Positions 58,872 through 64,000 are shown, counted from the stretch's first letter. The stretch is DNA of 64,000 bases from an uncultured Pedobacter sp. (GCA_964592575.1 CAZQFF010000002.1:75460-139459), one strand, 5' to 3'. Notes: a model not told the origin generated them from the letters alone. Translations and numbers: made by a program.

Positions 58872-59219
58872 TTATAATAGCTTATTGTTATCGTCAGGAA
58901 AAACCAAAATAGGCTTATACAGTTTGGCTTGCTCGATAGGCAAGGAGCCATAAGACATGATGATTAGAATATCACCCACTTGAACCTTTCTTGCTGTAGC
59001 CCCATTTAAACAAACTATACCTGTTCCTCTTTCTCCCTTAATCACATAAGTTTCAAAACGTTCCCCATTATTGTTATTCACAATTTGAACTTTTTCGTTT
59101 GGAATAATTTGAGCGGCATCCATTAAATCTTCATCAATCGTGATGCTACCCACATAATTTAATTCCGCTTGGGTTACTTTTACCCTATGTATTTTAGACT
59201 TTAAAATCTCAATGATCAT
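58872..59219 (-). CDS. panD: Aspartate 1-decarboxylase
   Basis: [14 protein letters not shown] (G-S self-cleavage), RFETY, NGATAR. Confidence 0.96.
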
Positions 59220-59242: not shown

Positions 59243-60091
59243 TTAGCCGATTAGCATATTGTCAATCAATCGTGTAGAACCCACTTTTGCCGCCACTAAA
59301 GCGATAGCTTGTGCTGGTGATTTTTGCTCCAATTTCAATAAACTATTTGGATCAGCGATCACAAAATAATCCAATTCAACGCCTGGTGTATTTTTAATCA
59401 TGGCTATCGCTTGGGCTTCTAGTTCATCTAAAGAGAGGGTTCTGTAATTAAGCGCAACAAAATTTAGCGCTTCATGTAAAACTAAAGCATGTACTCTATC
59501 TAAATCAGACAAGTGAATATTTCTAGAGCTCATAGCTAAGCCGTCTTGTTCCCGAATAATAGGACACATCACAATTTTCACGCTTAGATTCAAAGCAGAA
59601 ACCATATTGCGAATCATCATTACTTGCTGAAAATCCTTTTGGCCAAAATAGGCATAATCAGGCTTAACAGCATCAAATAGTTTCTTAACGATTTGCGTTA
59701 CACCTTGATAATGTCCCCTTCTAAACTCGCCTTCCAATAAAAACTCCGCAGGGCCCAAATCAATCGCCCAATTTTCACTCTTTGGAAAATATGGATACAT
59801 CTCATTAACCGATGGCATAAAAACCACATCACAGCCCACCTCTTTCAGCATCTGAATATCATGCTCCAAGGGCCTTGGATACTTCTCTAAATCCTTGGGG
59901 TCCGTAAACTGCGTTGGATTAACAAAAATACTGCAAACAACGATATCCGCTTCTTTTTGAGCTATTTGAATTAAAGAGATATGCCCTTTATGTAATGCGC
60001 CCATGGTTGGCACTAAAGCAAGTTTAGCATCCCGCTGGCTTGATTGATTTAAGACTTCTTGAAGAGCCTTTTGTGTATGTATGATTTCCAA
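59243..60091 (-). CDS. panC: Pantoate--beta-alanine ligase
   Basis: PTMGALHKGH, SIFVNPTQF, FGQKDFQQ, LAMSSRN, RLIDN. Confidence 0.96.
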   Translation of the reverse strand: MEIIHTQKALQEVLNQSSQRDAKLALVPTMGALHKGHISLIQIAQKEADIVVCSIFVNPTQFTDPKDLEKYPRPLEHDIQMLKEVGCDVVFMPSVNEMYPYFPKSENWAIDLGPAEFLLEGEFRRGHYQGVTQIVKKLFDAVKPDYAYFGQKDFQQVMMIRNMVSALNLSVKIVMCPIIREQDGLAMSSRNIHLSDLDRVHALVLHEALNFVALNYRTLSLDELEAQAIAMIKNTPGVELDYFVIADPNSLLKLEQKSPAQAIALVAAKVGSTRLIDNMLIG

Positions 60092-60186
60092 AATAGGGTT
60101 ACACTAATTTTCGCACCAAAGTTGGGGATTTCTACCTAAAGCACCAAGCCTCAACGACAATAATTGATAATTATTAATATTATTCG

Positions 60187-60194
60187 TACCTTTG
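60187..60194 (+). promoter_or_regulatory. -7 box TACCTTTG for the GT5-like/DUF4270/glmS operon
   Basis: TAnnTTTG match. Confidence 0.55.
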
Positions 60195-60232
60195 CGCCTT
60201 GGAAATCTTTAAATTAACATAATTTAATCAAT

Positions 60233-61063
60233 ATGGAGATGGCAAAAACGAAGCTATTGATTGTTACACACGAGATGTCGCCTTTCCTCGAATTAACAAA
60301 CATAGCAGAAATAACACGTAACCTTCCTCAAGCAATGCAAGACAAAGGATTTGAGATCCGAATCTTGATGCCTAGATTTGGCAATATAAACGAGAGAAGA
60401 AATCGTTTACATGAGGTTATTCGTTTATCAGGTATGAATATTATCATTGATGAGAACGACAACCCGCTTATTATCAAGGTTGCTTCCATCCCTTCTGCTC
60501 GTATGCAAGTTTATTTCTTAGATAATGAAGATTATTTTCAACGTAAATCTGCATTTAGAGACAAGGAAAATAAATTTTTTGCAGACAATGATGAAAGAAG
60601 CATTTTCTTTTGCAAAGGCGCGCTTGAAACCGTTAAAAAATTAGGATGGGCACCAGATGTGGTACATTGCCATGGCTGGATGACTGCTTTAGTCCCAACA
60701 TATATCAAAACTTCTTACAAAAACGATCCTACATTTAAAAATTCAAAAGTGGTTTACTCTATTTACGAAAACTGCTTTAGTGAGAAATTAAATGAGAAAA
60801 TCGCACAAAAAGCTATCATGCAAGGGATGAGCGAAGAAGATACGGCTTTGTTTAAAAATGCCGACTGCAATAGCATGCACATCGGTGCCGTTCAATATGC
60901 TGATGCTGTCGTAATTGGATCAGAAAATGTAAATGAAGATGTGTTAAAATTTGTTAAAGATTCGAATAAACCAACTTTAGCATTTAATTTAACCGAAGAT
61001 TTCGAGAATTACTTCAGTTTTTATGAAGAAATTCAGAAAGAAGAATTGATATCAGTTGCCTAG
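60233..61063 (+). CDS. Glycogen/starch synthase N-terminal (GT5) domain-only protein
   Basis: VTHEMSP, IRILMPRF, VYFLDNEDYF, PDVVHCHGW; no KTGGL, no C-terminal GT-B domain. Confidence 0.8.
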   Translation: MEMAKTKLLIVTHEMSPFLELTNIAEITRNLPQAMQDKGFEIRILMPRFGNINERRNRLHEVIRLSGMNIIIDENDNPLIIKVASIPSARMQVYFLDNEDYFQRKSAFRDKENKFFADNDERSIFFCKGALETVKKLGWAPDVVHCHGWMTALVPTYIKTSYKNDPTFKNSKVVYSIYENCFSEKLNEKIAQKAIMQGMSEEDTALFKNADCNSMHIGAVQYADAVVIGSENVNEDVLKFVKDSNKPTLAFNLTEDFENYFSFYEEIQKEELISVA

Positions 61064-61082
61064 ATTAGTTTATTAACACTAT

Positions 61083-62495
61083 ATGAAATTTAACAAAATA
61101 GACTTATTAACCTTGTTGATAAGTCTTTTTATTTTAACAGGTTGTGAAAAATCCTTAACCTTAGGATTAGAGATAGATCCAGAAAGTGCGATTGAAGGCA
61201 CCTTTGTGGATACCATTACGATTCAATCTCGTACCATACTTGAAGAAACAAGTTCTACCAACGGTATTAACAGACATCCCCTTGGATATATGCAAGATCC
61301 TATCTTCGGGACAACTGAATCCAATATTGCCGTTGCCTTGGGCTTACCAGGCAATCCATTTAGTTTTGGAACAGAGCCCGTAGTCGATTCAGCCGTTTTG
61401 ATTCTACCTTACAGCTCAGAATTTTATGGTGACTCTACCTTAACCTACAGTTTTGATGTACATCAGCTAAAAGAAAACATCGCCTTGGGTGAAAAGTTCC
61501 CAGCGAATGCGAACTATGCACACGAAACTACTGTTATTGGATCTAAAACGGGTCGTGTTTATCCAAACAGTAGAGTATTCATTACGCAACCTATTAATTC
61601 TGCACCCGATACCATAGCCAATTTAGTCCCACAAATGCGTATTCGTTTAGACAATAACTTTGTATCGACCAAAATCGTTAATGCAGGAGCAGAGGTATTG
61701 AAAAACGATTTTAACTTTAGTGAGGCCTTCAAAGGTTTATATATTAAAGTTAACAAAGCTAAAACAAGCGGTCAAGGTGGAATTACCTATTTAAATCTAA
61801 GTGAAGCTGGAGCTTATTTAACGGTTTACTATAAAACAAAAAACCCAAACAATACGCCTGTTTCTATTGATACACTTCAAGCCCTATTCCCAGTTGGAAC
61901 AACTTCGAGAGTAGCGGTAGCTAGTATCAAACACGATTATTCAGGTACAGTTATTGAAGAGCAATTAAACAAACCAAACCAACAATTTGAAAAAACATAT
62001 ATTCAAGGAACTGGGGGTTTAAGAAATAAGATATCCTTCCCTTATTTAAATAAGTTTAAACAAGAGGCCGGTAAAATTGTCGTAAATAAAGCTGAACTTG
62101 TCATTGACCTTGAACCAGGCACTAATTTAATGCCTTTTGAAGCGGCTCAACGTTTATCTTTATATCGTTATGATATTGCCAATCAAAGAAAAAATGTACC
62201 AGATAACGATCCTTATGGAGACGGAAGAGGTTCTACCGACCCTCAAGTATTTGGTGGCTATTTCAATGCAGTAAAAAACCAATATGTATTTGTAATTACC
62301 AATTACATTCAAGATTTAATCAGTGGCACCAAAGAAGATTATGGAACCTTCATTGGCCCAAGTCCATTGAATCAATTCATGCTAAATCCAGCCTACAATA
62401 CCGCTGCGCGCTCTATTCTAAGAGCTCAAAACAAAACTACTGGAAATCAAACCGGTACAATCAAATTAAATTTATACTACACGAAGATAGATTAG
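61083..62495 (+). CDS. DUF4270-like lipoprotein
   Basis: Lipobox LTGC; LGYMQDPIFGTT, VDSAVLILPY, FKGLYIK; located between the GT5-like gene and glmS. Confidence 0.7.
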   Translation: MKFNKIDLLTLLISLFILTGCEKSLTLGLEIDPESAIEGTFVDTITIQSRTILEETSSTNGINRHPLGYMQDPIFGTTESNIAVALGLPGNPFSFGTEPVVDSAVLILPYSSEFYGDSTLTYSFDVHQLKENIALGEKFPANANYAHETTVIGSKTGRVYPNSRVFITQPINSAPDTIANLVPQMRIRLDNNFVSTKIVNAGAEVLKNDFNFSEAFKGLYIKVNKAKTSGQGGITYLNLSEAGAYLTVYYKTKNPNNTPVSIDTLQALFPVGTTSRVAVASIKHDYSGTVIEEQLNKPNQQFEKTYIQGTGGLRNKISFPYLNKFKQEAGKIVVNKAELVIDLEPGTNLMPFEAAQRLSLYRYDIANQRKNVPDNDPYGDGRGSTDPQVFGGYFNAVKNQYVFVITNYIQDLISGTKEDYGTFIGPSPLNQFMLNPAYNTAARSILRAQNKTTGNQTGTIKLNLYYTKID

Positions 62496-62505
62496 TAGAA
62501 TATTC

Positions 62506-62529
62506 TCCCGAAAATAATTATTTTCGGGA
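62506..62529. repeat. Perfect 24-bp palindrome TCCCGAAAATAATTATTTTCGGGA
   Basis: Read directly; in the 55-nt spacer before glmS. Confidence 0.85.
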
Positions 62530-62550
62530 AAATTAAATATATATCTAACT

Positions 62551-64000
62551 ATGTGTGGAATTGTAGGTTACATTGGATTTCGAGAGGCTTGGCCAATCGT
62601 TATTAAAGGGTTAAAACGTCTCGAATATCGAGGTTATGATAGTGCTGGAGTGGCACTACTCGATCATGGAGAACTTAACATTTATAAAAAAGCAGGCAAA
62701 GTAGCAGACCTAGAAGAGTCTGTGAAAGGCAAAAATCTAGCAGGGACAATCGGAATGGGACATACCCGTTGGGCCACCCATGGTCCACCATCCGACAAAA
62801 ACTCTCACCCTCATACTTCTCATTTAGGCAAACTAGCCATCATACACAATGGGATTATAGAAAATTACGCAACACTTAAAGAAGAATTAAGCAGTCGCGG
62901 CCATGAATTTAAAAGTGATACCGATACAGAAGTTTTAATTCATCTAATCGAAGATGTTTACAAAAACGAAGGCATTGATTTACTGGAGGCCGTACGCTTA
63001 GCTTTACATAAAGTAAATGGCGCTTATGCTATTGTGGTTATGAACGAGGATCACCCGGATCAACTCATCGCAGCCAGAAAGGGTAGCCCTATGGTAATTG
63101 GTGTTGGAAAAGGCGAGTATTTTATCGCTTCTGATGCTACGCCAATCATTGAGTACACCAAAAACGTAATTTATCTAAACGATAATGAAATTGCTTTCCT
63201 AAAAAGAGATGAGTTATTGGTTAAGCGATTGGACAATATTGTTCAAACCCCTTACATCCAAGAGCTTGAACTCAAATTAGAAATGCTAGAAAAAGGTGGT
63301 TATGACCACTTTATGCTCAAAGAAATCAATGAGCAACCTCGCTCTATCAGAGATTGTATGCGGGGACGTATTTATCCTGAACAAGGCTTAGTACAATTAG
63401 GCGGCATAAAAGAATATGCGGATAAGTTGAAAAACATAGATCGCATAATCATTGTGGCATGCGGCACCTCTTGGCATGCTGGCTTAGTAGGAGAATATCT
63501 GATTGAAGAATTTGCACGTATACCAGTAGAAGTAGAGTATGCTTCAGAATTCCGTTACAGAAACCCAATCATCAGTGAAAAGGATGTGGTTATTGCCATC
63601 TCACAATCGGGAGAAACTGCCGACACTATGGCCGCTATTGAAATGGCGAAAGAAAAGGGAGCCACCATTTTTGGGGTATGTAATGTCGTAGGGGCATCTA
63701 TCCCCAGAATTACGCATGCAGGTGTTTATACACATGCTGGACCAGAAATTGGGGTAGCCTCTACCAAAGCCTTCACCGCTCAGGTAACCGTATTAACTTT
63801 AATGGCCTTTTATATGGCTCAACAAAAAGGCACCTTAAGCAATTCTAAACTGATTGAATTATTAACGGAATTAGATTGCATTCCTGATAAAATTCAAAAG
63901 GCCTTGGCCTCCAATGATTATATCAAAGAAATTTCAGAAAAGTTTAAAGATGCCCGTAATGCCATATTCTTAGGCAGAGGAAGTGGTTTCCCCGTGGCTT
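62551..64000 (+). CDS. glmS: Glutamine--fructose-6-phosphate transaminase, 3'-partial (absent from ORF track)
   Basis: MCGIVGYIG, LEYRGYDSAG, GHTRWATHG, HNGIIEN, SDTDTEV, ACGTSWHAG, SQSGETADT. Confidence 0.97.
   Translation, partial: MCGIVGYIGFREAWPIVIKGLKRLEYRGYDSAGVALLDHGELNIYKKAGKVADLEESVKGKNLAGTIGMGHTRWATHGPPSDKNSHPHTSHLGKLAIIHNGIIENYATLKEELSSRGHEFKSDTDTEVLIHLIEDVYKNEGIDLLEAVRLALHKVNGAYAIVVMNEDHPDQLIAARKGSPMVIGVGKGEYFIASDATPIIEYTKNVIYLNDNEIAFLKRDELLVKRLDNIVQTPYIQELELKLEMLEKGGYDHFMLKEINEQPRSIRDCMRGRIYPEQGLVQLGGIKEYADKLKNIDRIIIVACGTSWHAGLVGEYLIEEFARIPVEVEYASEFRYRNPIISEKDVVIAISQSGETADTMAAIEMAKEKGATIFGVCNVVGASIPRITHAGVYTHAGPEIGVASTKAFTAQVTVLTLMAFYMAQQKGTLSNSKLIELLTELDCIPDKIQKALASNDYIKEISEKFKDARNAIFLGRGSGFPVA

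Follow-up and report, generated by a model that had tools for sequence, protein, structure and literature searches.

Why would a bacterium keep half of a glycogen synthase, and keep it directly in front of a gene for an outer-membrane lipoprotein? The question is raised by a 64,000-nucleotide stretch of DNA (hereafter the window) from an uncultured Pedobacter sp. (GCA_964592575.1 CAZQFF010000002.1:75460-139459; C2:75460-139459 of genome G000 in our collection). Its 3′ end carries a gene for a 276-residue protein related to the N-terminal domain of glycosyltransferase family 5 (GT5) enzymes (here termed the half-GT), followed by a lipoprotein gene and glmS. The original prediction, made from the sequence alone, had placed these three open reading frames (ORFs) and the 19-nt gap between the first two correctly, and had proposed a circuit in which the half-GT binds a glucan or sugar nucleotide and, together with the lipoprotein, links carbon storage or envelope state to GlmS. 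We found that the lipoprotein is, by homology and fold, BamH; that gene order ties a GT5-derived gene to bamH across the phylum; and that the half-GT is kept in genomes in which its supposed partners were not found. The explanation that best accounts for these observations is an ancient gene cluster containing a non-catalytic half-GT with a role of its own, to which we assign a probability of about 0.6. The identities on which it builds (a half-GT, a BamH and a GlmS locus) we hold with somewhat more confidence.

The sole Pfam match of the half-GT was PF08323, the GT5 N-domain (E = 2.7e-56, residues 7-239). Alignment with full-length relatives of 490-520 aa assigned residues 1-238 to the N-domain and the last ~22 aa to the extreme C terminus of those relatives, with ~200 aa absent between the two. 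Because the terminal helix and C terminus are retained, the short form appears to have arisen by excision of the C-domain and not by a premature stop. The AlphaFold (AF2) model, with a predicted local distance difference test score (pLDDT) of 93.7 and a predicted template-modelling score (pTM) of 0.92, consists of one compact Rossmann domain and a final helix. Consistent with a homologous N-domain fold, the top Foldseek matches were GT5 starch and glycogen synthases (AtSS4 and the enzymes of P. abyssi, A. tumefaciens and E. coli) at a query-normalized template-modelling score (TMq) of ~0.7, with 6gne, 3fro and 1rzu at E values of 1e-13 to 1e-15. An engineered sucrose-phosphate synthase construct made of an N-domain and terminal helix (6ldq) was also among the fold matches. 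The ESM Atlas returned solely the half-GT's own 'starch synthase' clusters.

The motifs needed for catalysis have been replaced as well. The position of the K-T-G-G-L loop is occupied by E20-L21-T22-N23-I24, the ELTNI already read by the original prediction; the HC(N/H)DW motif has become HCHGW, and the (T/V)-H-N acceptor and glucose-binding motif has become SIYEN. Full-length relatives that are linked to bamH retain KTGGL, HCNDW and VHN. Among short forms the KTGGL-equivalent loop differs by family (ELTNI, VISEA, AENEV, ARMTY and others), and the candidate sugar-nucleotide- and glucan-binding loops are variable in general, which argues against the ligand binding that had been proposed for the half-GT. 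Apart from the N-domain fold, none of the marks of a GT5 synthase was found in the protein: it has neither two Rossmann domains nor the KTGGL loop nor the HxHDW and (T/V)HN motifs, and it scored below every cut-off of the curated NCBIfam GlgA models (NF010698, 192.8 versus 754 bits; TIGR02095, 127.1 versus 328 bits). We also looked in the same genome for a separately encoded C-half. A tblastn search with the C-halves of eight full-length relatives gave one weak match (E = 4e-4), which lay within a full-length glycosyltransferase, and no stand-alone PF00534 domain was found, all 12 PF00534 matches falling in frames of 377-457 aa. The half-GT has no signal peptide, which predicts a cytoplasmic location. 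With one domain missing, the KTGGL and HDW motifs lost and no C-half found, it is probably a catalytically dead, soluble cytoplasmic pseudo-enzyme, as the original prediction had suspected.

The product of the second gene matched PF14092 (DUF4270; E = 1.1e-55), with residues 40-468 aligning to profile positions 14-432 of 432, and it is the sole PF14092 match in the window's genome. Its lipobox cysteine is invariant in an alignment of 52 sequences. The DUF4270 family carries the name BamH in NCBIfam, and we observed a sequence match (E = 1e-17) to PDB chain 9n2d_C, labelled 'Bam H'. The AlphaFold model (pLDDT 84.5) gave matches spanning the three BamH chains of known structure from end to end: FjBamH (9n2d_C; E = 2.6e-27, TMq 0.70), BtBamH (9his_G; TMq 0.65) and PgBamH (9hjm_G; TMq 0.62), the next structure reaching 0.18. 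BamH (Fjoh_0823, BT4306), a lipoprotein essential to F. johnsoniae, forms the extracellular canopy of the Bacteroidota β-barrel assembly machinery (BAM) complex (PMC12611786, PMC12578637; both 2025). The position of the window gene corresponds to that of BT4306 beside BT_4307, a 'putative glycogen synthase' of B. thetaiotaomicron, and to that of Fjoh_0823 beside fjoh_0824; because these pairs share their neighbour, we regard the position as orthologous. The protein scored below the NCBIfam equivalog cut-offs (BamH_fj, 117.5 versus 420; BamH_bt, 23.6 versus 670), which belong to models tuned to other orders, and has a single acidic residue within six residues of the lipid cysteine. A BamG homologue lies on contig C6 of the same genome. 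On homology, fold and gene order the second gene is BamH, and association of its product with BamA and BamG is predicted.

We found the half-GT to be nearly universal in class Bacteroidia. A homologue was present in all 151 genomes sampled from the phylum and in 394 of 401 genomes of the class (a tally that takes in two unpublished genomes, G233 and G310, which no other claim uses). Among class genomes at least 90% complete the count was 362/363, the single complete genome without a match having a gene fragment at a contig end. Homologues from the same genus are ~80% identical and 274-276 aa long. Close free-living pairs gave ratios of nonsynonymous to synonymous substitution rates (dN/dS) of 0.03-0.04, and two reduced genomes described below, compared with each other, gave 0.29; 18 residues are invariant across 58 sequences from several classes. 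In a tree of N-domains, all 60 short forms fell on one branch (Shimodaira–Hasegawa-like approximate likelihood ratio test support of 99) with full-length bamH-linked forms as sisters, and the canonical GlgA of the same genus was distant (branch length 2.1). These results are consistent with a single origin of the short form followed by vertical descent.

The residues under constraint may point to the ancestry of the retained function. R55, H60, R64, L65, K82, Q92, Y94, F95, N98, F102, R104 and W139 are invariant in short forms and common to the full-length bamH-linked clade, and they differ in canonical GlgA. Most of the invariant residues of the short forms fall in this clade-specific set, which is concentrated in the hairpin region at residues 50-105 and includes the motifs RLH.V.RL, KV and Q.YF common to the half-GT and the full-length bamH-linked enzymes.

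The original prediction had described this gene order as widespread. We surveyed synteny over ±7 kb around 69 homologues (37 loci of the same class, 20 short-form loci of other classes and 12 loci with the full-length form), annotating neighbours with the window proteins and an iterated DUF4270 profile. Together with the presence counts above, this survey showed the locus to be a typical example of an arrangement that is very common. A bamH gene lies downstream on the same strand in 36/37 same-class loci, 19/20 other-class short-form loci and 10/12 full-length loci. By contrast, glmS comes after bamH in 26/37 same-class loci and never in the other two groups (0/20 and 0/12). Thus the order held phylum-wide for the GT5-derived gene and bamH, and its glmS part held only within class Bacteroidia. 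The divergent panC upstream is likewise a same-class feature (34/37, 0/20 and 0/12), panC and panD being conserved neighbours in class Bacteroidia only. The gene for BamG, recognized by its matches to NF053685 (213-267 bits against a cut-off of 250) and PDB 9n2d_B, follows bamH in 0/37 same-class, 19/20 other-class short-form and 7/12 full-length loci. Finally, a GmhB-like HAD-IIIA phosphatase gene directly follows the GT5 gene in 11/12 full-length loci (0/37 and 0/20 in the others), and in the ten full-length loci with bamH it stands between the two.

Outside the class, bamG usually precedes a gene for a tetratricopeptide repeat (TPR) protein, and the clusters take one of two forms, half-GT–bamH–bamG–TPR or full-length GT5–gmhB-like–bamH–bamG–TPR. 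As judged from gene order, the link between GT5 and bamH is phylum-wide and older than the domain loss, and the tight, old link is with bamH, not glmS. The ancestral cluster was probably GT5–gmhB-like–bamH–bamG–TPR, and the locus studied here is probably its Sphingobacteriaceae version, derived by shortening of the GT5 gene, the move of bamG to another contig and the arrival of glmS.

Several further features of the surveyed clusters are recorded here as observations. The GmhB-like phosphatase (loci L090-L100; for example, L092:8476-9084 and L100:8485-9054) reached E values of 1e-36 to 1e-51 with NF006506, the model for heptose 1,7-bisphosphate phosphatase, but not its cut-off. Two Chlorobi-sized genomes (L094 and L097) carry a GT5 with a degenerate KTGGL loop (RISAL) and the phosphatase, and no bamH. 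The TPR protein encoded after bamG (L070-L088; for example, L075:7820-11747 and L085:7882-11706) is ~450 aa long, has weak LapB/PrsT-like matches and may be yet another protein associated with BAM. Some other-class loci have a gene for glycogen phosphorylase (PF00343) or a glycoside hydrolase family 31 (GH31) α-glucosidase immediately 5′ of the half-GT (L075:3506-5962, L082:4142-6691), and the half-GT there stands at the junction of α-glucan genes and BAM genes.

Two kinds of genome separate the half-GT from the functions suggested by its ancestry and its neighbours. The window's genome is 2.2 Mb in size and 100% complete by markers; the four other sampled genomes of the genus measure 4.5-6.0 Mb and carry both a canonical GlgA of 471-480 aa and a 277-aa half, whereas the window's genome carries the half only. 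In it we found no glycosyltransferase family 3 (GT3) synthase, full GT5 synthase, phosphorylase, branching enzyme or GlgC (the glycoside hydrolase families GH57 and GH77 were not searched). Because the half-GT is kept in a genome that has lost canonical GlgA and the remainder of the glycogen pathway, it appears to be independent of that pathway, and the proposed link to carbon storage is not supported.

The second case is a pair of Bacteroidia genomes of ~0.49 Mb and 22% GC (G163 and G206), two related metagenome assemblies that are the only members of their family in the collection, one of them labelled 'uncultured Bacteroides sp.'. Both keep an intact half-GT (L108:4926-5804 and L109:4971-5825; 34-36% identical), which sits between eno and gyrB, away from any bamH. 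Pfam detected no DUF4270 in either genome at E ≤ 1, and a 65-sequence DUF4270 profile run unfiltered against all open frames of one of them reached a best E of 0.58. GlmS, PanC, PanD, BamG and LpxC were also not found in the two genomes, and MurG and a BamA-like gene were present. Because the half-GT is kept where none of them was found, its role would need neither BamH, BamG, GlmS nor lipid A. Taken with the evidence from the window's genome, this retention argues that the half-GT is neither a GlmS-gating nor a glycogen device, and that its role is its own and not that of its neighbours.

The coordinates of the locus and its candidate signals are collected in Table 1. GlmS was assigned from its class-II amidotransferase and SIS domains and from scores above the equivalog cut-off (TIGR01135, 635.5 bits versus 418; NF001484, 649.5 bits), with the last ~130 aa lying beyond the window.

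Table 1. Genes and candidate signals at the half-GT–bamH–glmS locus (window positions)
Feature	Position	Strand	Details
panD	58872-59219	- (divergent)	Pfam PF02261, 8.1e-51
panC	59243-60091	- (divergent)	Pfam PF02569, 2.3e-97
Candidate Bacteroidota-type promoter	60164..60194	+	TTG (-33) at 60164-60166; TACCTTTG (-7 box) at 60187-60194
Half-GT gene	60233..61063	+	276-aa ORF; GT5 N-terminal Rossmann domain and terminal crossover helix (residues 258-273)
bamH	61083..62495	+	470-aa ORF; DUF4270 surface lipoprotein, lipobox LTGC, Cys21
Hairpin in bamH	61100..61136	+	12-bp stem, loop of 3 (61100-61126), then U-rich run; codons 6-18
Hairpin in bamH–glmS spacer	62506..62529	+	Perfect 10-bp stem, TCCCGAAAAT / ATTTTCGGGA, loop AATT, dG -12.8 kcal/mol
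glmS (glutamine--fructose-6-phosphate transaminase)	62551..>64000	+	483 of ~612 aa inside the window

The single promoter that the original prediction had seen at 60187 could be confirmed at the level of a pattern scan. There, TACCTTTG matches the Bacteroidota -7 box TAnnTTTG by consensus alone, with a TTG 19 nt upstream; the box ends 38 nt 5′ of the half-GT ATG and is the sole TAnnTTTG in the 141-nt region between panC and the half-GT gene. TAnnTTTG occurs 43 times on the + strand of the 64 kb, which puts the odds of a chance occurrence at ~1 in 10. A scan for sigma-70 sites found them no more numerous than in shuffled sequence. The half-GT stop codon (61061-61063) is followed after 19 nt by the bamH ATG, and bamH starts 0-30 nt past the stop of the half-GT-type gene in most loci. 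Since a 19-nt gap is too short for a promoter, we treat the half-GT gene and bamH as one transcription unit. In line with shared transcription, the 100 bp ahead of fjoh_0824 in F. johnsoniae supplied one of two native promoters for the inducible systems with which essential Bam subunits were depleted (PMC12611786). The spacer between bamH and glmS is 55 nt long, and no TAnnTTTG box was seen ahead of glmS in a pattern scan of 61700-62550. The three genes are thus probably transcribed together from the candidate promoter. No Rfam family, the glmS ribozyme included, was found at E ≤ 1 in 59800-64000.

We also examined the two hairpins. The one inside bamH, which resembles a terminator and falls within the codons for the signal peptide, is retained in 11 genomes from three genera of the family, with 132/132 alignment cells paired; its stem changes solely between A-U and G-U pairs, and the loop and flanks are variable. 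A covariation check found zero double compensatory changes, the shuffle control was uninformative and the encoded amino acids are conserved too, so these data are suggestive only of a possible attenuator of transcription into bamH and glmS. Hairpins with T-runs early in bamH were also seen in some other families (L040, L045, L047, L055 and L070), not in all. The spacer hairpin lacks a following U-run, and the nearest other genus (L033) does not conserve it.

How might such a locus have come about? The ancestor of the half-GT would be the full-length GT5 clade that adjoins bamH in other classes. One old event would have deleted the ~200-aa nucleotide-sugar-binding C-domain and left the N-terminal Rossmann domain with its packing helix, after which the KTGGL diphosphate loop and the HDW acceptor motif would have drifted. 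The retained function would be a second property of the ancestral clade that outlived catalysis, with a true GlgA or a GT3 enzyme taking over glycogen synthesis where required. Adjacency to bamH would most likely have been kept since bamH relies on the promoter of the upstream gene. In mechanistic terms, the half-GT may bind a partner protein or ligand through surface residues of the hairpin region 50-105 (the clade-specific set listed above without W139). This binding scaffold is a tentative proposal that we would back at clearly less than even odds. It is possible, and more speculative again, that Bacteroidota in general rely on the half-GT as a near-essential cytoplasmic factor, one whose non-glycosyltransferase function derives from a moonlighting surface of the bamH-linked GT5 clade, for example in coupling metabolism or precursor supply to envelope assembly.

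Published data on the half-GT orthologue BT_4307 provide weak leads. The protein was found in the membrane-fraction proteome of B. thetaiotaomicron and showed no significant change on bamH deletion (PMC12578637). In addition, a B12 photo-affinity probe significantly enriched it in both replicate screens, on a list of 16 proteins that includes abundant background proteins (PMC8941943, Table 1). A text search of the literature found no essentiality data for BT_4307 or fjoh_0824.

Several considerations weigh against the explanation that we prefer. What speaks for the binding scaffold is residue conservation, and some of the clade-specific conserved residues may belong to the protein core instead of a surface patch. 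The long synteny with bamH and bamG could mean a real functional tie. Divergent BamH or BamG could escape detection at 22% GC, and two reduced genomes, metagenome-assembled and from one family, may not suffice to exclude such a tie.

That tie is the substance of the explanation that comes closest to ours, in which the half-GT is a functional partner of outer-membrane biogenesis and, from the cytoplasm, influences how BamH and BamG or their clients are made, targeted or supplied. A GT5-derived gene lies upstream of bamH in 65/69 surveyed loci over several classes, with bamG and the TPR gene next outside Bacteroidia; the linkage predates the domain loss, a GmhB-like phosphatase of the heptose/lipopolysaccharide type stands between the two genes in full-length loci, and BT_4307 was detected in the membrane fraction. 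However, the half-GT has no signal peptide and BamH is extracellular, BT_4307 did not change significantly in the bamH deletion, and the two reduced genomes keep the half-GT under purifying selection where BamH, BamG and LpxC were not found. We consider this partnership unlikely. Even more doubtful is that the half-GT is a non-catalytic binder of α-glucan, its N-domain having retained the ancestral acceptor site or surface glycogen site, that organizes or senses the glycogen made by a GT3 or canonical GT5 synthase. Its GT5 ancestry, the invariant aromatic residues Y94, F95, F102 and W139, and the phosphorylase or GH31 genes just upstream in some other-class loci would fit such a role, as would the remark in a review that Bacteroidetes acquired a GT3 synthase while retaining a GT5 'fragment' (PMC11046441). 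Yet the acceptor motifs HDW and HN are replaced, and the window's genome keeps a half-GT 80% identical to those of its genus while searches there found neither a GT3 or full GT5 synthase nor a phosphorylase, a branching enzyme or GlgC.

The circuit of the original prediction makes the half-GT a sensor of glucan or sugar nucleotide that acts with the lipoprotein to control GlmS and the flux of amino sugars. It would be favoured by the position of glmS after bamH in most same-class loci, by the lack of a promoter box of its own and by the lack of a glmS ribozyme, so that some other control must exist. But the lipoprotein is the extracellular BamH and offers no direct partner to a cytoplasmic protein, glmS is unlinked outside class Bacteroidia, the half-GT stays intact where no GlmS was found, and the candidate ligand loops are not conserved. 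This circuit is accordingly very improbable as proposed. Split GT-B enzymes exist, among them Alg13/Alg14 and bacterial pairs of the EpsE/F type, and the half-GT fold is intact in the model, as would be expected of an N-half that pairs with a separate C-half. Against such a split enzyme, neither tblastn nor the search for a stand-alone PF00534 domain found a cognate C-half, and the donor-diphosphate loop differs between families; we give it slightly less credence than the circuit. The least probable explanation that we weighed is a relic without protein function that carries only the promoter and leader for the essential bamH. The short distance to bamH and the lack of a separate promoter box visible there agree with it, as does the part that the region ahead of fjoh_0824 played in the F. 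johnsoniae depletion systems mentioned above (PMC12611786). A dN/dS of 0.03, 18 invariant residues in 58 sequences and the survival of the gene apart from bamH in the two reduced genomes are hard to reconcile with a mere leader.

If the half-GT is a non-catalytic protein with a role of its own, several consequences follow. The annotation 'glycogen/starch synthase', carried by nearly every Bacteroidia genome, is wrong for the 270-aa form; BT_4307 has been cited as evidence of glycogen storage (PMC10797578), although it is without the catalytic half. The half-GT would be among the few universally conserved Bacteroidia proteins without an assigned function, one that is kept even in 0.5-Mb genomes. 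Its gene comes first in an operon that encodes an essential BAM subunit, itself not described until 2025, and whoever deletes or depletes bamH, or reuses the fjoh_0824 promoter, is working on that operon. It also shows clearly how nature can cut a GT-B enzyme to its N-domain and terminal helix and keep it for another purpose, and its partner or ligand could expose an unrecognized step of Bacteroidota cell biology. To earlier knowledge this analysis adds the architecture left by the excision, its single origin, how strong the selection is, a bamH/bamG cluster that spans the phylum and predates the domain loss, and the finding that the half-GT is independent of BamH, GlmS and the glycogen genes.

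Among known systems, GlgA and starch synthase of family GT5 (the PRK14098 type, NF010698) have the same N-terminal Rossmann domain and terminal crossover helix as the half-GT. In GlgA, however, the C-terminal Rossmann domain binds ADP-glucose and holds the catalytic Arg, Lys and Glu; the half-GT is without it, coexists with a GlgA of 471-480 aa in the same genus and persists without a glycogen pathway. The second gene resembles BamH of the Bacteroidota BAM complex in its DUF4270 domain, its lipoprotein nature, its full-length fold, its status as sole paralogue and its place after the half-GT; it differs in scoring below the species-tuned NCBIfam cut-offs and in having one acidic residue near the lipid cysteine. 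By analogy drawn from established knowledge, the half-GT may be likened to Alg14, a stand-alone N-terminal Rossmann domain of a GT-B enzyme that is not catalytic alone and recruits the catalytic Alg13. Unlike Alg14, it has no membrane anchor and no C-half partner that we could find, belongs to GT5 and not to GT1, and does not conserve its cleft loops. The closest precedent is the GT5 'fragment' of the review mentioned above (PMC11046441), which is the same gene family and the sole mention of it that we found in the literature, the BAM papers not discussing the half-GT. The review regards it as what remained after GT3 had taken the place of GT5. By contrast, our analysis describes a precise domain excision of single origin, held under strong purifying selection, tied to bamH and bamG and independent of the glycogen genes.

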